A stretch of DNA of 64,000 nucleotides from an uncultured Lachnospiraceae bacterium. Lineage in GTDB: Bacteria > Bacillota > Clostridia > Lachnospirales > Lachnospiraceae. The stretch covers positions 743-64,742 of the forward strand of contig CAZJEN010000019.1 of assembly GCA_964545045.1 (NCBI GenBank), written 5' to 3'. Made by a program: the position numbers and the translations under genes. This document shows, piece by piece, positions 40,693-61,852 of the stretch. A model generated the notes under the pieces. It searched no databases, was not told where the DNA came from, and saw only the letters and a list, made by a program, of their open reading frames with translations. Positions within the stretch are counted from its first letter, which is position 1, and each line of letters starts with the position of its first letter.

Positions 40693-40788
40693 TTACTTAC
40701 AAAACGTAAAAACGAATGTAAGCAAAGCTATAAGAAAGAGTCCGAAGGACAACAAATCTCGAAAATCAAATTTGTTCTGATTCTTCAT
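40693..40788 (-). CDS. 31-aa hydrophobic peptide, holin-like/type I toxin-like (absent from the ORF track)
   Basis: MKNQNKFDFRDLLSFGLFLIALLTFVFTFCK. GGAGGTGGAG RBS, its own strong promoter, an SD-sequestering hairpin CCUUCAUUC/GAAUGGAGG, and a terminator directly after the stop. Confidence 0.55.
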   Translation of the reverse strand: MKNQNKFDFRDLLSFGLFLIALLTFVFTFCK

Positions 40789-40855
40789 AAGCTCCACCTC
40801 CATTCTTTAGGAATGAAGGTCACCCCACCCTGTAACACGATTGTTCCATGAGTCT

Positions 40856-40884
40856 AGTATAACAAAACCAGAACAAGGGTTCAA
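40856..40884 (-). promoter_or_regulatory. Promoter of the 31-aa peptide gene
   Basis: Minus strand TTGAAC, 17-nt spacer, TGtTATACT extended -10. Confidence 0.6.
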
Positions 40885-42936: not shown

Positions 42937-42966
42937 TTGACAATTGCTCAAAAGTAATGTTATACT
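42937..42966 (+). promoter_or_regulatory. Promoter of candidate antitoxin sRNA (copy 1)
   Basis: TTGACA (42937-42942), 18-nt spacer, TGtTATACT (42958-42966). Confidence 0.6.
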
Positions 42967-42972
42967 TAGGTC

Positions 42973-43066
42973 AGAAAAGGTGCTACCGATAGAACGGTTG
43001 CCCTGAAATTTTGGGTTACAAAAAAGTAACTGTCAAGTTCTCAGGCTCGGACAGTTACTTTTTTGC
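42973..43066 (+). ncRNA. Candidate ~95-nt sRNA convergent with, and overlapping the 3' end of, the 35-aa peptide gene (copy 1)
   Basis: Strong promoter upstream. Ends in hairpin AAAAAAGTAACTGTC...GACAGTTACTTTTTT, which also contains the peptide stop codon on the other strand. Confidence 0.45.
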
Positions 43067-43280
43067 GTTTTTACCGTTGGAATAGCCTAACTTGTAGGCT
43101 GCACCGCAAGCGATACTTACAATAGCAATCAAATAATACACAGATTCTATAGTCAAATACATAAGCGCAAAAACCTCCCTTTTACATATTCTTGAAGGCA
43201 TGAGCATCCAAGTGAAATCTATGTAAACAGAGCTTGTACTCTCCGGGGGAGGGCAACCGTCCTACCGTACTATGTAGCAC
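42980..43280. repeat. Direct repeat copy 1 (~300 bp) = type I toxin-antitoxin-like module
   Basis: Aligns by eye along its length with 51763-52067. Ends are inverted: GTGCTACCGATAGAACGGTTGCCC ... GGGCAACCGTCCTACCGTACTATGTAGCAC. Confidence 0.85.
43055..43162 (-). CDS. 35-aa hydrophobic peptide, type I toxin-like (copy 1, absent from the ORF track)
   Basis: MYLTIESVYYLIAIVSIACGAAYKLGYSNGKNAKK; GGGAGG RBS 10 nt upstream; the 5' UTR contains the complementary CCCUCCC. Confidence 0.55.
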   Translation of the reverse strand: MYLTIESVYYLIAIVSIACGAAYKLGYSNGKNAKK

Positions 43281-43288
43281 CTAAGAAT

Positions 43289-43317
43289 AGTATAAAACAT
43301 AAATTCGAAAATGTCAA
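43289..43317 (-). promoter_or_regulatory. Promoter of the 35-aa peptide mRNA (copy 1)
   Basis: Minus strand TTGACA, 17-nt spacer, TATACT; predicted start at the repeat boundary. Confidence 0.6.
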
Positions 43318-45701: not shown

Positions 45702-45741
45702 GGTAATGTAAAGATTATAGTTGGTTATATTGTTAAAAGAG

Positions 45742-45785
45742 AAAAGTAACGGCCAGTTGTCAAACGTTGACCGTTACTTTTTTAT
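45742..45785. terminator. Bidirectional terminator sharing its stem sequence with the terminators of the two repeat modules
   Basis: AAAAGTAACGG ... CCGTTACTTTTTT; compare AAAAAAGTAACGGTC...GACCGTTACTTTTTT at 51805-51849. Confidence 0.65.
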
Positions 45786-46210
45786 TGTCTTTTTACTTTG
45801 ATTTTCGTAAATTCTATAATTTCTTTTTTATCCGTTTCGGATAGTTTTTCAAAATAATACAAAAGTTCTTTTTCTAAAACAGTATGGAACTGGTACTTTT
45901 TCTTATTGGTTTCGTTGCTGAAGTGACTGAGGTACTCGCCGAAATCTTCTGCGGTATGATCAGGTGTGGAGGTATTAAAAAAATAAATAGAAGGATCAAG
46001 CTCGACGGTATTTGCCATAAGATCATCGACGGTAATGCCATAAAACTTGGCAAGCTTGTAGAGTATATCATTGCTTGGAGTTCTTTTGCCGGTTTCGTAA
46101 TGGGAATAGGTTTGTCTGACAACACCAAGCGCGGCAGCTACATCGGCTTGATTATAGTTGTGAAGTTTTCGAAGTTCTTTTATCTTGCACGCAAGAGTCT
46201 TGTTTGTCAT
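45782..46210 (-). CDS. XRE-family HTH regulator (candidate controller of the adjacent operon)
   Basis: ATG 46210 after GAGGTG; HTH NQADVAAALGVVRQTYSHYETGKRTP; divergent from the methyltransferase operon. Confidence 0.8.
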   Translation of the reverse strand: MTNKTLACKIKELRKLHNYNQADVAAALGVVRQTYSHYETGKRTPSNDILYKLAKFYGITVDDLMANTVELDPSIYFFNTSTPDHTAEDFGEYLSHFSNETNKKKYQFHTVLEKELLYYFEKLSETDKKEIIEFTKIKVKRQ

Positions 46211-46285
46211 GGAAGTCACCTCGTATCGTTTAACTGTCAGAATGAAAAATCATAAGTAAAGTATAGTCGGTTTGTAATACAAAGA

Positions 46286-46363
46286 TGCTACGCGATGTAG
46301 CAAATATTTGACAAAAATGTAAAATAGGTGTAGCATTATGTTAAAATGCTACAAAGTGTAGCG
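46286..46363. promoter_or_regulatory. Divergent promoter region with repeated TGCTAC/GTAGCA operator-like boxes
   Basis: TGCTAC-GCGAT-GTAGCA (46286-46302) and TGCTAC-AAAGT-GTAGCG (46347-46363), plus GTAGCA at 46330-46335. TTGACA at 46308-46313; TGtTAAAAT at 46339-46347. Confidence 0.6.
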
Positions 46364-46443
46364 TTTTGCCGTTGCATAGAACTGCGGGAAGTCGGTTTGG
46401 ATTGAAACGGTGGTCAAAATCCGAGGGAGGAGACGTTGCACTT

Positions 46444-47205
46444 ATGGAAAAACAGGTGAAATCTAAGCAGCGCGTGGCTGATCACGGAGAGGTTTTTACC
46501 GCTGAACGTGAAGTGCAGGCAATGTGCGATTTGGTGAAGCAAGAGACGGAACGAATCGATAGTCGTTTTTTGGAGCCAGCTTGCGGTGACGGAAATTTTC
46601 TTTCTGCGATTTTGGAACGAAAATTAACGGTTGTTACAAAAAAGTACAGACGTAGCGCCTATGACTGGGAGCGTAACGCATTATTGGCGTTGGGAAGCAT
46701 TTATGGGGTAGATATTATGCCGGATAATGTTCTTGCCTGTCAGGAGCGTCTGTTTGAAATTTGGAATAAAGAATACAAGAAGGTTTGCAAAAAAGAATGC
46801 AATGATGCAACGAGAGAAGCGGCGAGGTTTATCCTTTATTTGAACATTGTCTGTGGAAATGCACTGACATTGCTGTGCTGTGATGATGAGGGGAAGGAAC
46901 TGGAAACCCCGATTGTCTTCTCGGAATGGACCTTCCCTTTTAATGACGCACGTATGCAACGTAAGGATTATACGTTCGCTGAACTTTTGGCGGCGGAAGA
47001 TTCAAACGTTAAGAAGAAAAAGCAGGAGGGTGAGTCCTTCGTTCAAGGAACGCTCTTCGATATGGAGTCGGAGAAGGTGGGTGATGAAGGCCGATTCTTG
47101 CAGCAATATATTGCACATTATCGGTGCATTCAAGAGGATGATACCCGTCGAAAGGGAGCAAATCCCTACTTATATCTGACAAAGGAGGAAACGGACAATG
47201 GCTAA
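46444..47205 (+). CDS. DNA-methyltransferase-like protein with a degenerate catalytic motif and no target-recognition domain
   Basis: HGEVFT, motif I LEPACGDGNFL, IYGVDIMPDNV and NIVCGNALT are present. TFPF occupies the position where (D/N)PP(Y/F) is expected. 253 aa. Confidence 0.7.
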   Translation: MEKQVKSKQRVADHGEVFTAEREVQAMCDLVKQETERIDSRFLEPACGDGNFLSAILERKLTVVTKKYRRSAYDWERNALLALGSIYGVDIMPDNVLACQERLFEIWNKEYKKVCKKECNDATREAARFILYLNIVCGNALTLLCCDDEGKELETPIVFSEWTFPFNDARMQRKDYTFAELLAAEDSNVKKKKQEGESFVQGTLFDMESEKVGDEGRFLQQYIAHYRCIQEDDTRRKGANPYLYLTKEETDNG

Positions 47206-48763
47206 CGGTCTTTTTGATAATGTGTATAATCCTGATGTGTTATCTTGTTTGGCAAACCTCTCTAACGATGAGGTATTTACACCGCCTGAAATGGTAAATC
47301 AGATGTTGGATATGCTTCCACAGGAATTGTTTCGCAATCCTGATACCACCTTTTTGGACCCGGCTTGTAAAACAGGAGTTTTCCTGCGAGAGATTGCAAA
47401 GAGACTGATTGTCGGTCTGGAACCTCAGTTCCCGGATTTGCAGGAACGACTGGACCATATTTTTCATAAGCAGTTGTATGGAATTGCGATTACGGAGTTA
47501 ACAAGTCTTCTTTCGAGAAGAGGGTTGTATTGTTCGAAGTATCCGAATAGTGAGTTTTCGGTGTCTTATTTTGATGAGAAACACCAAGACGGAAATATTC
47601 GTTTTAAGAAAATACGACACACATGGGAACCGGAAAAACTCATGAGAGACCTAAACGGGCGAAAAATTGGAAAGTGCATCTGGTGTGGAGCTTCGAGAGA
47701 TGAGTATGACCGGTCGAAAGAGTTGGAGACGCATGCTTATGAATGGATTCATGCAAATCAGCCAGAGGAGATATTTGGTATGAAATTCGATGTAATAATT
47801 GGTAATCCGCCTTATCAGTTAAGTGATGGCGGTAATGGTGCAAGTGCAAAACCGATATATAATCTATTTGTGGAACAGGCTAAGAAATTAAATCCGCGCT
47901 TCTTGATTATGATTATTCCATCTCGTTGGTTCGCCGGAGGAAAAGGTTTGGACGATTTTCGTGAAGCTATGTTAACAGATAGAAGGGTAGTTAGGATAGT
48001 TGACTATGTAAATGCAAAGGATTGTTTCGCTGGGATTAGCCTCGGTGGAGGTGTGTGTTATTTTTTATGGGATAGAGACAATCCGCGGAAATGTGAGTTT
48101 ACAAATATTCATGATGGAAAAGAATCGACAGATTTACGAGATCTTTCTGAGTTTCCTGTATTTGTTCGATACAATGAAGCGATATCTGTTATTCGGAAAG
48201 TATTAGATAAAAATGAACAAAAGGTTTCGGAAGTTGTTGGGTCAAGAAATCCATTTGGTCTTTCATCCGCTGTTCGTGGTGATAAAGACAAGACGGGAAT
48301 TACTGTATATTCCAGTGGCGGGATCGGAAATATAGCAGAAAAAGAGGTAACACAAGGAAAACATTTAATAAATCAATATAAGGTTATGATTAGTAAGGTA
48401 ACAAGTGAGCATGCTGGTGAGCCTGATAAGAGTGGAATGTTTTCTGTACTGTCAACAGTACGTGTTTTGAAACCACAAGAAGTGTGTACGGATTCCTATT
48501 TGATTGCGTATGAATCTAACAATGCCGTATTTGCAGAAAATTTTGCCCAATATATGTGTACAAAATTTTTTAGATTTCTTTTGCTTCAGGCTGTTTCATC
48601 GATTAATCTTTCAAAGGATAAGTTTCAATTTGTTCCTATGCAAGATTTCACGAAAACATGGACTGATGAAATGTTGTATGAAAAATATGAACTTACGCAG
48701 GATGAAGTTGAGTTTATTGAGTCTATGATGAAAGAAAAGGAATTGGAGGGAGGAATTAGGTAA
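47198..48763 (+). CDS. N6-adenine DNA methyltransferase (gamma-class, Eco57I-like methylase domain)
   Basis: AGGAGG RBS; 8-nt overlap with the upstream gene; DEVFTPPEMV, LDPACKTGVFL, FDVIIGNPPYQLSDGG; ~250-aa C-terminal region (putative TRD). Confidence 0.85.
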   Translation: MANGLFDNVYNPDVLSCLANLSNDEVFTPPEMVNQMLDMLPQELFRNPDTTFLDPACKTGVFLREIAKRLIVGLEPQFPDLQERLDHIFHKQLYGIAITELTSLLSRRGLYCSKYPNSEFSVSYFDEKHQDGNIRFKKIRHTWEPEKLMRDLNGRKIGKCIWCGASRDEYDRSKELETHAYEWIHANQPEEIFGMKFDVIIGNPPYQLSDGGNGASAKPIYNLFVEQAKKLNPRFLIMIIPSRWFAGGKGLDDFREAMLTDRRVVRIVDYVNAKDCFAGISLGGGVCYFLWDRDNPRKCEFTNIHDGKESTDLRDLSEFPVFVRYNEAISVIRKVLDKNEQKVSEVVGSRNPFGLSSAVRGDKDKTGITVYSSGGIGNIAEKEVTQGKHLINQYKVMISKVTSEHAGEPDKSGMFSVLSTVRVLKPQEVCTDSYLIAYESNNAVFAENFAQYMCTKFFRFLLLQAVSSINLSKDKFQFVPMQDFTKTWTDEMLYEKYELTQDEVEFIESMMKEKELEGGIR

Positions 48764-51699
48764 TGGCCCAGGAGTTTTTCTTACAACGCCCATCAGTAAC
48801 CCCAACAATCTATGTTTATAACCTCCCGCAAGTAACTACCCACAAAGGCTATGTAAAGGTTGGCTATACTGACCGTGACGCAGAAACACGTATCAATGAG
48901 CAGATGCATACCAGTGGCCTAAAAGCCAACATTCTTTATACGGAATCTGCAATGTGTTCCGACGGTTCCGTTTTTACTGACAAAGAGGTACATCGTGTTT
49001 TGCGTCGTAAAGGCTTCCGTCAGATGAATGAGGGCAATGACCGGAATGAATGGTTTAAGTGTACAGTGGCAGATGTCAAGGCGGCGATTGTGGAGTTAAA
49101 GGAAGGTATTATTACGGAAGCCAGTCGTACCGCTACATTTAAAATGCGTCCGGAGCAACATCATGCTGTAAATCGTACAATGGAGTATTATGCATATGCA
49201 GCGAAGGAAGAACCGGGCAGGCCGCCGAAGTTCCTTTGGAACGCAAAGATGCGTTTTGGTAAGACCTTCGCAGCGTATCAGCTTGCAAAGAAGATGGACT
49301 TTAAGCGTATCCTTGTTTTGACTTTTAAACCTGCGGTGGAATCTGCATGGCGCGAGGATTTGATGACCCATGTAGACTTTGATGGCTGGCAGTTTATTTC
49401 CAATAAGGATGCTGCCGGAAATCATGTGAACATTGATCGTGAGTATATTTATGCGGATAAAAAGAGACCGATTGTGGTGTTCGGTTCTTTTCAGGATTTG
49501 TTAGGAACAAATGAAGCAGGAGGCATCAAAGCCAAGAATGAGTTCATTCATTCGGATAATTGGGATCTCGTGATTTTTGATGAATATCATTTCGGTGCCT
49601 GGCGTGAAAATGCAAGAAAGTTGTTCGAAAATCCGGATGAAGAAGAAACGGCAGATTTTGATGTTGAGAAGTACGGTTTGGAAGAAGCAGGAAACGCTTA
49701 CAATGAGACGTTTTTGCCAATCACAACCGGTCACTATTTGTTCCTGTCGGGCACACCGTTCCGCGCGATCAACAGTGGCGAGTTTATTGAGGACCAGATT
49801 TATAACTGGACGTATTCCGATGAACAGCGTGCAAAAGAAACCTGGGTGGGTTCTAACAATCCATACGCCGCATTACCTCGTATGGTGATGCTTACCTATC
49901 GTATTCCGGACAGCATTCGTCAGATTGCTATGCAGGGGGAATTTAACGAATTTGACCTTAATGTATTCTTTTCGGCAAAAGGCAAGGGTGACGAGGCGAA
50001 GTTTGTATATGAAAATGAAGTACAGAAGTGGCTTGATCTTATCCGCGGTTCTTATCTGCCGTCTAATATCGACGATATGAAGCTGGGACAGGATAAACGT
50101 CCTCCGATGCCGTATTCCGATACTCGTTTACTGAATGTGCTGTCACATACACTTTGGTTTTTGCCGAATGTTGCATCTTGTCAGGCAATGTACAATTTGA
50201 TGATGCAGAAGCAGAATGCATGGTTCAATCAGCGTTATACGATTAACGTTTGCGCCGGGACCAGAGCCGGTATCGGTTTGGATGCGCTTGTTCCTGTGCA
50301 GCGTTCTATGGGAGACCCGCTTGTAACGCAGACCATTACCTTGTCTTGCGGTAAGTTGACAACCGGTGTTACCGTTAGGCCTTGGACCGGAGTTTTTATG
50401 CTGCGTAATCTGAAAAGTCCCGAAACCTATTTCCAGACTGCATTCCGTGTACAGTCTCCGTGGGAAATTACGGATGAGTCCGGGAATCGTCAGATTATGA
50501 AGCAGGAGTGTTATGTGTTTGATTTTGCGTTGGACCGTGCGCTTCGCCAAATTTCCGATTATAGTTGCCGCTTGGATGTAAGGGAATCCAATCCGGAAAA
50601 GAAGGTTGCAGAATTTATCAGCTTCCTTCCGGTACTTGCTTATGACGGAAGCAGTATGCACCAAATCAGTGCGCAGGATATTTTGGATATTGCTATGGCA
50701 GGTACGTCTGCAACACTTCTTGCAAAGCGTTGGGAGTCTGCGTTGCTGGTTAATGTAGATAATGATACGCTTACCCGTCTGATGGCTAGTAAGGAGGCAA
50801 TGAATGCGCTTATGAATATTGAGGGCTTCCGTTCTCTGAACCAGGATATTCAGACCATTATTAATAAGTCCGAAGCAGTTAAGAAAGCCAAAAAGGACGG
50901 CGGAGAAAAGACACAGAAAGAAAAGAAGGAACTTACCGAGCAGGAAAAAGAATATAAGTCCATGCGTAAGAAGATTCAGGAAAAGCTGATTAAATTTGCT
51001 ACCCGTGTTCCGATATTTATGTATCTTACGGATTATCGTGAACGTTCCTTAAGGGATGTGATTACACAACTTGAACCGGGGCTCTTTAAAAAGGTTACCG
51101 GTTTGGATGTGAAGGATTTTGAATTGTTGTGCTCTCTCGGGGTGTTCAATGCAAACCTGATGAACGATGCTATTTTTAAATTTAAGCGTTATGAAGACTC
51201 CAGTCTTTCTTATACCGGTATCGATAAACACAAGGATAAGGATGTCGGCGGTTGGGATACCGTAATTAAACGAGAGGAGTATGACAGGCTTTTTTATAAC
51301 CAGCAGGCGACAATGGAACAGCCGGCGATTTTTGAAGTACCGGTTGCGGCAGAAGACGTCCCGGTTTCGGAAAGAAAACCGGCGGGAAGTCAGAGAAGCG
51401 TTTCGGTAAGTTCCGAACCACAGGCAAAGTCCGGAGAACTGCGATTGATTACCGCGCAGTATGGAGTGAAGTCGCCTGTATATGCAATGAAGGTGGCGGA
51501 TGAACCGTCGGAGTACGGAGTATCCGAGGTGCCGAAGATTAAGAGAGGGGACCAGGTAATACATAAGACCTTCGGAGAAGGTACCATTACCGGAATCGAC
51601 AAGGCACAGACGCATATTCGTGTTACATTTGCCGTGGGGGAAAAGATGTTTATCTATCCGGAAGCATTTGAAAAAGGATTTCTTGTTTTAAAGGAGTAA
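48763..51699 (+). CDS. GIY-YIG/T5orf172-like nuclease domain + SF2 (ResIII-like) helicase + PcrA/UvrD-Tudor-like C-terminal domain
   Basis: TAATG overlap with the methylase. N-terminus TIYVY...VKVGYT...NEWF. Helicase motifs RFGKTF, VIFDEYH, LSGTP, QTAFRVQSP. C-terminus GDQVIHKTFGEGTITGIDKAQTHIRVTF. Confidence 0.8.
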   Translation: MAQEFFLQRPSVTPTIYVYNLPQVTTHKGYVKVGYTDRDAETRINEQMHTSGLKANILYTESAMCSDGSVFTDKEVHRVLRRKGFRQMNEGNDRNEWFKCTVADVKAAIVELKEGIITEASRTATFKMRPEQHHAVNRTMEYYAYAAKEEPGRPPKFLWNAKMRFGKTFAAYQLAKKMDFKRILVLTFKPAVESAWREDLMTHVDFDGWQFISNKDAAGNHVNIDREYIYADKKRPIVVFGSFQDLLGTNEAGGIKAKNEFIHSDNWDLVIFDEYHFGAWRENARKLFENPDEEETADFDVEKYGLEEAGNAYNETFLPITTGHYLFLSGTPFRAINSGEFIEDQIYNWTYSDEQRAKETWVGSNNPYAALPRMVMLTYRIPDSIRQIAMQGEFNEFDLNVFFSAKGKGDEAKFVYENEVQKWLDLIRGSYLPSNIDDMKLGQDKRPPMPYSDTRLLNVLSHTLWFLPNVASCQAMYNLMMQKQNAWFNQRYTINVCAGTRAGIGLDALVPVQRSMGDPLVTQTITLSCGKLTTGVTVRPWTGVFMLRNLKSPETYFQTAFRVQSPWEITDESGNRQIMKQECYVFDFALDRALRQISDYSCRLDVRESNPEKKVAEFISFLPVLAYDGSSMHQISAQDILDIAMAGTSATLLAKRWESALLVNVDNDTLTRLMASKEAMNALMNIEGFRSLNQDIQTIINKSEAVKKAKKDGGEKTQKEKKELTEQEKEYKSMRKKIQEKLIKFATRVPIFMYLTDYRERSLRDVITQLEPGLFKKVTGLDVKDFELLCSLGVFNANLMNDAIFKFKRYEDSSLSYTGIDKHKDKDVGGWDTVIKREEYDRLFYNQQATMEQPAIFEVPVAAEDVPVSERKPAGSQRSVSVSSEPQAKSGELRLITAQYGVKSPVYAMKVADEPSEYGVSEVPKIKRGDQVIHKTFGEGTITGIDKAQTHIRVTFAVGEKMFIYPEAFEKGFLVLKE

Positions 51700-51721
51700 T
51701 CTATACAAGATAAAGTTTCGG

Positions 51722-51750
51722 TTGCTTTTTATTAGAAAGCATGCTATAAT
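51722..51750 (+). promoter_or_regulatory. Promoter of candidate antitoxin sRNA (copy 2)
   Basis: TTGCTT, 17-nt spacer, TGcTATAAT. Confidence 0.6.
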
Positions 51751-51756
51751 AAAACA

Positions 51757-51851
51757 AAGAAAGTGCTACCGATAGAACGGTTGCCCTGAAATTTGACGAA
51801 TTACAAAAAAGTAACGGTCAGCTTACCAGGCGAGGACCGTTACTTTTTTGC
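51757..51851 (+). ncRNA. Candidate ~95-nt convergent sRNA (copy 2)
   Basis: Promoter upstream; terminator AAAAAAGTAACGGTC...GACCGTTACTTTTTT with a compensatory T>G / A>C change relative to copy 1. Confidence 0.45.
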
Positions 51852-52067
51852 GTTTTTACCATTGGCATAACCTAACTTGTAGGCTGCACCGCAGGCGATA
51901 CTTACAATAGCAATCAAATAGTACACAGATTCTATAGTTAAATACATAAGCGCAAAAACCTCCCTTTTACATGTTTCCAAAGGTGAGTACCTATGGATGA
52001 AGCATCTATGTAAACAGAGCTTGTACTCTCTGGGGGAGGGCAACCGTCCTACCGTACTTAGTAGCAC
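51763..52067. repeat. Direct repeat copy 2 (~300 bp) = type I toxin-antitoxin-like module
   Basis: Same organisation as 42980-43280; most divergent in the middle of the 5' UTR and in the terminator loop. Confidence 0.85.
51840..51947 (-). CDS. 35-aa hydrophobic peptide, type I toxin-like (copy 2)
   Basis: MYLTIESVYYLIAIVSIACGAAYKLGYANGKNAKK (one substitution vs copy 1); GGGAGG RBS. The 75-aa track ORF is an upstream extension. Confidence 0.55.
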   Translation of the reverse strand: MYLTIESVYYLIAIVSIACGAAYKLGYANGKNAKK

Positions 52068-52075
52068 TTTAGTAC

Positions 52076-52104
52076 ATTATAGGTCGTAGGATAATAGATG
52101 TCAA
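52076..52104 (-). promoter_or_regulatory. Promoter of the 35-aa peptide mRNA (copy 2)
   Basis: Minus strand TTGACA, 17-nt spacer, TATAAT. Confidence 0.65.
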
Positions 52105-61587: not shown

Positions 61588-61852
61588 AAAATTGATTTTG
61601 TAATAAGAAGGTATGTGTGTATAGTATATTTTTGAATTTGTGTAGGATGTTAGACTTTCTTATTGCTTCGATGGCTGTCAACAATTTCCGGACACGGATG
61701 TCCGGAAAAGACGTGCACGCGGCACGGATGGCGCGTAAGCGTCGGTTGTAGGAAATTGAGGAAAGTTTTGACCGAAGCAATTAGAAAGACTTATATCCGG
61801 AACCCATGAACAAAATATATTATACACACATACCTTCGAATAAATCAATTTT
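61588..61852. repeat. 265-bp near-continuous palindrome D between convergent genes (MITE-like or large hairpin RNA)
   Basis: ~83-bp arms share AAAATTGATTT, GAAGGTATGTGTGTATA, TATATTTT, CTTTCT and ATTGCTTCG in inverted orientation. The ~100-bp GC-rich centre contains CCGGACACGGATGTCCGG. Confidence 0.7.

Follow-up and report, generated by a model that had tools for sequence, protein, structure and literature searches.

What kind of element occupies positions 42937–43317 of the 64,000-nucleotide (nt) window analyzed here, which covers positions 743–64742 (forward strand) of contig CAZJEN010000019.1 from an uncultured Lachnospiraceae bacterium (GCA_964545045.1)? An earlier note, made from the sequence alone, had read this locus as a compact type I toxin-antitoxin-like module, in which a minus-strand mRNA encodes a small hydrophobic peptide and a convergent small RNA (sRNA) from the plus strand ends at the same hairpin. 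As far as sequence analysis goes, this interpretation is supported by the coding signature of the peptide open reading frame (ORF), conserved promoters, the co-varying sequestration of the Shine-Dalgarno (SD) sequence, a conserved and structured antisense RNA, and an autonomous multi-copy distribution. We therefore regard it as probable that the module represents a hitherto undescribed family of type I toxin-antitoxin systems. The peptide gene was found at 38 loci in species-representative genomes, almost all of them from Lachnospiraceae of human, mouse, and ruminant guts, and the module was also present on four IMG/VR contigs. The arrangement is recovered in these 42 loci (38 genomic plus 4 IMG/VR), the helices covary across the family, and the comparative data indicate selection on the module, which is the outcome of the search of related genomes with a covariation check that the earlier note had proposed.

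The toxin side of the first copy is located on the minus strand. The canonical promoter claimed by the earlier note (TTGACA-17-TATACT) is present at 43317–43289 and matches the consensus at 11 of 12 positions. The transcription start of the toxin mRNA is predicted at about position 43282 (A43282), which results in a leader of 120 nt (43282–43163) and a transcript of about 265 nt. From reading both strands and from the alignment of the leaders across loci, the following order of elements was deduced: the promoter is followed by a 5′ block (block 1, AGGUGCUAC, 43282–43274), the near-invariant segment ACGGUAGGAC (43268–43259), block 2 ACGGUUGCCCU together with the C/U-rich anti-SD CCCUCCCCC (43260–43245), and a hairpin, referred to as hairpin 2, the stem of which (43245–43241/43232–43228) covaries across loci. 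The leader segment that carries the anti-SD reads GCCCTCCCCC (= GCCCUCCCCC; 43254–43245), so that the leader is indeed complementary to the SD as previously suggested. The SD itself (GGGAGG, 43179–43174) lies 11 nt 5′ of the ATG at 43162, from which it is separated by the spacer UUUUUGCGCUU (43173–43163). The ORF at 43162–43055 encodes the 35-amino-acid (aa) peptide MYLTIESVYYLIAIVSIACGAAYKLGYSNGKNAKK and had been correctly delimited; its TAA stop codon (43057–43055) lies, as stated, in the terminator stem, within a perfect 16-base-pair (bp) inverted repeat. The mechanically generated ORF list contains only a version extended to 50 aa, which was rejected, since it lacks an SD and relatives have stop codons in the upstream frame. 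The fold of the toxin RNA is more stable than all of 200 shuffled sequences (z = -3.2), and CCCUCC and GGGAGG are paired with each other in its minimum-energy structure.

On the plus strand, the strong extended -10 promoter anticipated by the same note (TTGACA-18-TGtTATACT) is located at 42937–42966, again with 11 of 12 consensus matches. It is predicted to drive an antisense sRNA of about 95–100 nt (42973–43072), and the proposed geometry, an RNA of about 95 nt that ends at the common hairpin and is antisense to the 3′ end of the peptide mRNA, is present in the sequence. The shared bidirectional terminator (43019–43065, both strands) has a perfect 16-bp stem (43019–43034/43050–43065) with A6 and T6 flanks, holds the stop codon of the toxin gene and constitutes the core of the overlap between the two transcripts. 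From its 5′ end, the sRNA consists of an A-rich leader, a 5′ hairpin (42978–43004), a GAAAUUU motif, a spacer, and the terminator. Perfect complementarity exists to about the last 45–60 nt of the toxin mRNA, which correspond to the terminator hairpin plus the last four to five codons. Its predicted fold also lies below all of 200 shuffles (z = -4.2).

By pattern search, a second copy of the module was identified at about 51722–52104, 9 kb from the first one and likewise with the toxin on the minus strand. The toxin promoter of this copy (TTGACA-17-TATAAT, 52104–52076) matches the consensus at all 12 positions and has a predicted start at about 52069. The corresponding mRNA (52069–51800, minus strand) contains an SD at 51964–51959, the peptide ORF MYLTIESVYYLIAIVSIACGAAYKLGYANGKNAKK at 51947–51840, and the terminator at 51849–51804, whereas the plus strand carries the sRNA promoter (TTGCTT-17-TGcTATAAT, 51722–51750) and the predicted sRNA at about 51757–51855 (51722–51855 in total). 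The peptides of the two copies differ in a single residue (S28A). Alignment of the copies revealed that near-identity spans the region between the two predicted transcription starts, and that the promoters have little in common besides their -35 and -10 hexamers. In the terminator stem there is a compensatory change from ACUGUC/GACAGU in copy 1 to ACGGUC/GACCGU in copy 2; the terminator loops differ at many positions, whereas the 5′ domains are the same. The genomic surroundings are different: copy 1 is flanked by a HAD hydrolase gene on one side and by a RidA-family gene on the other, and copy 2 is located directly upstream of hrcA-grpE-dnaK-dnaJ. A 6-kb island (45702–51711) lies between an MGMT-like gene and module copy 2. 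It encodes an XRE-type HTH regulator, a 279-aa ORF, an Eco57I-type restriction-modification methylase, and a 978-aa protein with T5orf172 (GIY-YIG-like) and ResIII helicase parts. The island is absent in a closely related genome (L007, 93% identity over 3.2 kb), which has the copy-2 module. Since the module is kept there without the island, the two copies are not a by-product of the latter.

Does the peptide ORF represent a gene at all? Analysis of the last 30 codons in 28 intact copies yielded entropies of 0.55, 0.29, and 1.19 for codon positions 1, 2, and 3, respectively, and 3730 synonymous versus 1132 non-synonymous single-nucleotide codon differences. By this sequence signature, the ORF is a real gene under purifying selection. 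Nearly all intact copies have a GGAGG-type SD 8–11 nt 5′ of the start codon. The family alignments gave the consensus MITISL[EQ][ST]IYYIVAIxSILCGAAYK[LI]GYExGKNAKK, in which a short polar N-terminus is followed by a hydrophobic helix rich in small residues and by the invariant cationic tail YK[LI]GYxxGKNAKK; a conserved proline or tryptophan is absent from all family alignments. AlphaFold2 modeled a single helix for residues 5–33 (mean predicted local distance difference test score 84.7), and the 35-aa product is predicted to be a single-helix membrane peptide. Searches with the peptide matched only unnamed proteins of 34–36 aa. A profile search with a padded version of the 35-aa alignment yielded at least 383 protein clusters for the family at E up to 1, and an exhaustive profile search returned 46 representatives at 50% identity. 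The family matches are named no further than “hypothetical protein” and none of them has a Pfam domain. Pfam, NCBIfam, and PHROGs gave no credible match when they were queried with the peptide, the 50-aa extension, and 24 family members. In some genomes (L035, 3077–3205; also proteins P0013–P0016), a GC-rich insert of about 125 nt breaks the toxin ORF just past the KLGY codons. Over its full length, the opposite strand of this insert matches the Rfam Clostridiales-1 RNA below threshold (28.9 bits versus a gathering threshold of 48, E = 2e-4). The same insertion was found again in several metagenome contigs, and this recurrence points to a small element, mobile or structured, by which the toxin gene is targeted or inactivated.

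In silico, the mRNA of this gene is translationally closed from the outset, with its SD sequestered. In 25 of 27 related loci, a toxin promoter with at least 9 of 12 consensus matches occupies the equivalent position, and the anti-SD is found about 70–85 nt upstream of the SD. An anti-SD:SD duplex is predicted in all 28 loci, with energies from -9.9 to -17.5 kcal/mol. RNAalifold missed this helix on a plain MAFFT alignment of the leaders because of register shifts, and tests of cognate versus non-cognate duplexes were used instead. In these tests the two elements co-vary (cognate -13.5 versus non-cognate -11.9 kcal/mol), with none of 10,000 permutations reaching the cognate mean (p < 1e-4); an example of such a co-change is GCCCUCC:GGGAGG versus GUCUUCC:GGAGGAC. 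In ensemble folds of 28 full mRNAs, the SD is paired with a mean probability of 0.90, of which 0.69 is with nt 1–45. Further helices surround this pairing. Hairpin 2 (CAGAG-AGUACAAG-CUCUG) has 100% of cells paired and compensatory changes in all five pairs. Block 1 can form a 5′-terminal hairpin with the invariant GUAGGAC (93.9% of cells paired), and a pairing of block 1 with block 2 is likewise possible (88.8% of cells paired), here with a covariation not above that of shuffles; block 2 in turn participates in the anti-SD helix. In addition, the SD-AUG spacer (UUUUGCG) pairs with the last codons of the ORF (CGCAAAA, from N-A-K; p = 1e-4). Compensatory examples of the latter pairing are UUUUUGCG:CGCAAAAA versus UUUUUGCAU:AUGCAAAAA as well as CUGCGU:AUGCAG, and the underlying codon differences include synonymous ones as well as K/R/E changes. 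All 25 copies with Ala at position -3 encode it by GCA, a uniformity that fits a constraint at the RNA level. The 8-nt loop of hairpin 2, AGUACAAG (hairpin at 43228–43245), occupies the same position in all loci and is almost invariant, whereas its stem covaries freely. No complementary partner for this loop was found in the sRNA or the mRNA and it may therefore be a contact site for a protein or the ribosome.

The antisense RNA is conserved in a comparable manner. In the sRNA alignment, the terminator helix has 95.6% of cells paired and changes on both sides in 10 of 14 pairs, and the 5′ hairpin (AGG-u-GC-u-ACCG/CGGU-u-GC-CCU) has 85% of cells paired and both-side changes in 6 of 9 pairs. These values were reached by none of 500 shuffles, and shifting the 3′ partners cut the pairing to 35–54%. 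A covariance model of the sRNA matches only the two copies within the window (42977–43066 with 91 bits, 51760–51851 with 86 bits). Across the loci, it places the sRNA immediately downstream of the peptide gene, in antisense orientation, in 40 of 42 cases, including loci that were not used for building the model and loci with a decayed toxin. At least 9 of 12 promoter matches are reached by the sRNA in 14 of 27 loci compared to about 10% of shuffles, with a TG extension in 12 loci. The Rfam collection contained nothing relevant, neither for the whole window at gathering thresholds nor for the locus at E up to 10, where SpF25, xanthine, and sR43 appeared as noise.

How could this RNA act on the toxin mRNA? 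One candidate, a pairing of the sRNA 5′ domain to the ribosome site in the manner of par or SprA1AS, was rejected, as the cognate combinations are no better than non-cognate or shuffled ones: the energies between the sRNA 5′ domain and the translation start region were -14.8 kcal/mol for cognate, -14.5 for non-cognate (p = 0.19), and -13.7 +/- 3.8 for shuffled pairs. An unrestricted search for sRNA:mRNA duplexes gave sites that were inconsistent among the loci, and a hairpin-to-hairpin pairing of the 5′ domains of sRNA and mRNA showed a weak signal (p = 0.02, about 0.8 standard deviations better than shuffles). Pairing at the 3′ ends offers a different route. We propose that a strongly transcribed but structurally closed minus-strand mRNA would encode the small membrane peptide, with the SD held by the anti-SD, the SD-AUG spacer by the final ORF codons, and the very 5′ terminus by a small hairpin. 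The convergent sRNA would make its first contact with this mRNA via the complementary terminator loops, by analogy to bsrG/SR4, txpA/RatA, and par, and the resulting duplex would be a substrate for RNase III, whereby the toxin mRNA would be destabilized. As the duplex would also cover the end of the ORF, the SD-AUG spacer would be freed, the SD-sequestering helix could be extended and translation would stay off. Duplex predictions for the anti-SD:SD pairing already show block 2 paired with the spacer. Upon loss of the unstable partner, the mRNA still present would be translated, and membrane damage by the peptide would follow. Transcription, toxicity, the involvement of RNase III, and the direction of the structural switch are all inferred here.

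A further feature concerns the 5′ ends of the two transcripts. Both predicted RNAs start with GGTGCTAC...ACGGTTGCCCT (= GGUGCUAC...ACGGUUGCCCU), which appear as inverted repeats in the DNA. The near-identical starts described in the earlier note are thus present at the inverted repeat ends; in the 64 kb, this twin-start pattern matches only the two module copies, with 0 matches expected by chance. In the sRNA, blocks 1 and 2 (AGGUGCUAC and ACGGUUGCCCU) together form the 5′ hairpin. When the 5′ ends of sRNA and mRNA were compared, the cognate identity of block 1 was 8.43/10 versus 6.86 for non-cognate pairs (p < 1e-4), and that of block 2 was 8.46/14 versus 7.70 (p = 0.003). Variants of block 1 are GGCACUAU in loci L017, L019, and L022, GGUGUUG in L025 and L028, and GAUUAUC in L026. 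By these comparisons, the near-identical and co-evolving 5′ ends of the two predicted RNAs are real.

The sole sequence directly complementary to both 5′ ends is a stretch of the toxin strand just beyond the shared terminator. For a toxin transcript that reads through the terminator, a 5′-3′ clamp is predicted in 28 of 28 loci, with tail-pairing probabilities of 0.88 for nt 1–10 and 0.67 for nt 25–36. The clamp lowers the probability of a paired SD from 0.90 to 0.70 on average, and to 0.36 and 0.10 in copies 1 and 2, respectively. Candidate explanations for the twin 5′ ends are such a read-through clamp, a shared protein or RNase partner, or descent from an inverted duplication, and we are undecided among the three. 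Built on the clamp, a rather speculative and on balance unlikely idea would be that the antitoxin sRNA mimics the 5′ end of the toxin mRNA itself and competes with this end for the read-through tail. A minority read-through toxin transcript would fold its tail onto its own 5′ end, the clamp would draw the anti-SD off the SD, and the read-through isoform would be the translatable one. The sRNA, as a perfect complement of the tail, would compete with the mRNA 5′ end for it, thereby restoring SD sequestration and creating a long RNase III substrate. A three-way competition of this kind, among anti-anti-SD, anti-SD, and SD and with a leader-copying antisense RNA deciding the outcome, is described for none of the type I systems compared here. 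On the toxin strand, the stretch 42975–43010 and its equivalents in most loci combine a complementary counterpart of the sRNA 5′ hairpin with a short U-rich run downstream of it (CCUUUUCU and similar). From its sequence, this stretch could be a weak second terminator for read-through toxin transcripts.

With regard to its distribution, the module seems to be independent of its surroundings. Comparison of the flanking genes revealed no conserved neighbor gene across the 38 genomic loci, and since the flanking genes share nothing between loci, the module is considered autonomous. With tblastn, no match was obtained in the GenBank phage collection or among the plasmids of PLSDB. Two copies are present in some genomes, and in several copies (L006, L021, L034, L037, and L038) the start codon or the N-terminal half has been lost. 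Multiple copies per genome, a tandem duplicate, and decayed toxin ORFs with a kept sRNA are typical of type I systems. The tandem duplicate was observed in L017 (3330–3640), where a complete second module with promoter, leader, identical 34-aa peptide, and sRNA is located about 440 bp downstream of the first one. In L021, L032, L034, L037, and L042, the toxin ORF lacks its start or 5′ half and the sRNA is kept with scores of 48–82 bits; judged by their sequence, these appear to be orphan antitoxin-like RNAs beside decayed toxins.

Is the module then a member of a known family? The statement in the earlier note that this is not the Fst/par arrangement was only partly right. The repeat geometry (inverted instead of direct) and the toxin family do differ, whereas the promoters, the terminator, the SD-sequestering leader, and the paired 5′ end correspond to the layout of par, which comprises convergent promoters, a bidirectional terminator, an SD-sequestering 5′-SL, and an extreme 5′ end held in the 5′-UH (PMC7472228). 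Like the module, par of pAD1 with its toxin Fst has its convergent promoters at the ends of a unit of about 400 bp, a common bidirectional terminator with overlapping complementary stem-loops, a toxin of about 33–35 aa with a charged C-terminal tail, repeats at both RNA 5′ ends, and an intramolecularly sequestered SD and extreme 5′ end; these structures are analogous, but the sequences are not homologous. In par, the 5′ end of the antitoxin owes its complementarity to the toxin's translation start region to the direct repeats DRa and DRb (PMC7472228). In the module, however, the repeats are inverted, so that the two RNAs start identically instead of being complementary, and the sRNA 5′ domain shows no conserved pairing to the translation start region. 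The toxin also lacks the PXXXG(C) motif and the conserved tryptophan of Fst, and models for Fst, Ldr, and PepA1 (24 members, Pfam and NCBIfam, E up to 10) as well as the Rfam antitoxin families gave no match to the module.

The bsrG/SR4 and txpA/RatA systems of Bacillus subtilis resemble the module in that a convergent antitoxin RNA overlaps only the 3′ end of the toxin mRNA and the SD is sequestered within the mRNA. For SR4/bsrG, 3′ pairing extends the SD sequestration (PMC3834814), and first contact via complementary terminator loops has been described for par (PMC7472228) and for SR4/bsrG (PMC3834814). By analogy, a contact of the terminator loops and a pairing-induced change around the SD are plausible for the module, because its SD-AUG spacer pairs with the end of the ORF that is covered by the sRNA. 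The module differs from both B. subtilis systems by its shorter overlap (about 45–60 nt) and by an sRNA 5′ hairpin that copies the 5′ end of the toxin mRNA. The Hol_Tox, TxpA, and BsrG toxin models did not match the module peptide, and the Rfam antitoxins gave nothing but noise at E up to 10.

Similarities also exist to SprA1/SprA1AS (PepA1) and SprG/SprF of Staphylococcus aureus, where a cis-encoded antisense RNA has a 3′ overlap and a separate non-overlapping 5′ domain, and where a small membrane peptide is encoded behind a sequestered SD. Sayed et al. are said to have reported in 2012 that the 5′ domain of SprA1AS pairs in trans with the ribosome site. An equivalent pairing of the module 5′ domain is, unlike there, unsupported by the cognate/non-cognate test, and the NCBIfam models for PepA1 and PepG1 did not match the module peptide. 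A 5′-3′ fold-back like that of hok/sok and aapA1/IsoA1 is predicted for the module only in the case of a transcript that extends past the first terminator, the tail of which would be complementary to its own 5′ end (28/28 loci). In contrast to these systems, the clamp of the module needs read-through of a good terminator and is predicted to open the SD rather than to close it, the antisense RNA is located at the 3′ end and not at the 5′ end, and there is no sequence relationship. Since the comparison with par features and the searches with Hol_Tox and Rfam models failed to place it, the module is type I-like yet outside the described families. Characterized type I systems are scarce among Clostridia. 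According to homology surveys, few type I toxins are found in Clostridia outside Clostridioides difficile (PMC6563280; PMC2887945), with almost none in one of them (PMC6563280). The peptide motif occurred in no paper of the literature searched, which did not extend to the supplementary tables of Fozo et al. 2010 with Clostridiales Fst-like hits.

Several observations weigh against a type I toxin-antitoxin system. Both RNAs and the toxicity of the peptide are predictions from sequence alone, and the sRNA promoter reaches 9 of 12 matches in just 14 of 27 loci. The free mRNA is predicted to be closed already, so that the added effect of the sRNA is inferred. Direct occlusion of the ribosome site in the manner of par or SprA1AS is not supported, because the sRNA 5′ domain shows no conserved complementarity to the start region. 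The peptide fits no known toxin family. Its hydrophobic stretch is short and rich in small residues, and it is possible that it is a benign membrane peptide. Finally, a classical addiction role is unlikely, as the module was not found in phage or plasmid collections.

These points lead to the rival that survives best, namely that the module encodes a regulated, non-toxic small membrane protein, e.g., a modulator of a membrane complex, for which leader and antisense RNA would do no more than adjust the amount. The strong conservation up to the invariant YK[LI]GYxxGKNAKK would suit a specific partner equally well, and the missing link to plasmid and phage collections and to known toxin families is in line with such a function. 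However, no conserved neighbor gene or operon partner was found in the 38 loci, several copies per genome, one tandem duplicate, and start-less copies that retain the sRNA occur, and the combination of a strong promoter, near-complete SD sequestration, and a dedicated antisense RNA typifies type I toxins and would be uncommon for a micro-protein with a housekeeping role. We consider this explanation unlikely, but it deserves to be taken seriously. It could also be that the module is a miniature mobile element, with the near-identical ends as terminal inverted repeats and the ORF and promoters as incidental parts. In favor of this, the unit is about 300 bp long, is bounded by inverted repeats, and is found in numerous intergenic regions unrelated to one another, with several copies in a genome. 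Yet the conserved promoters directly adjoin the repeats on their outer sides, with constant spacing in almost every locus, the interior has a protein-coding signature, and the repeats themselves are hairpins with compensatory changes, the arms of which have only blocks of 8–11 nt in common with different inserts between them; moreover, no transposase is associated with the module among the flanking genes of the loci, which makes a mobile element highly improbable. Equally far-fetched is a gene for a secreted or bacteriocin-like peptide under the control of an antisense regulator. The peptide is indeed small, cationic, and hydrophobic and has weak sub-threshold matches to class IIb bacteriocin and BlpZ immunity models (E ~0.08), but these matches are at noise level and occur in only one to two of 24 members, a leader peptide or double-glycine site is missing, and no transporter, immunity, or modification gene is located near any locus.

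As a type I toxin-antitoxin system, the module would enlarge the known repertoire by a family of considerable size (at least 383 protein clusters) that is specific to gut Lachnospiraceae, which are dominant and little-studied commensals. As a compact unit of 380 bp, it escapes protein, RNA, and defence-system annotation. Its predicted RNA design combines three nested cis pairings (5′ hairpin, anti-SD:SD, and spacer:ORF end) with an antisense RNA that copies the 5′ end of the mRNA. If the peptide is toxic, the pair might be usable for counter-selection or containment in Lachnospiraceae genetics, for which there is a precedent in C. difficile.

Two further elements were observed in the window. 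Next to lepA, an unrelated second candidate type I toxin is located at 40693–40884 on the minus strand; the gene on its other side is, from reading its sequence, presumably a hemN/hemW-like radical-SAM gene. The candidate consists of an ORF of 31–36 aa (MEVELMKNQNKFDFRDLLSFGLFLIALLTFVFTFCK) after a GGAGG motif and an extended -10 promoter (TTGAAC-17-TGtTATACT) at 40884–40856, and it shows weak sub-threshold matches to Hol_Tox (E = 0.0075) and PepG1 (E = 0.0028). Furthermore, a full-length TwoAYGGAY RNA (Rfam RF01731) was identified at 61638–61805 on the plus strand with 102 bits versus a gathering threshold of 43, and a related copy of this RNA is present in L001 at 125–309.

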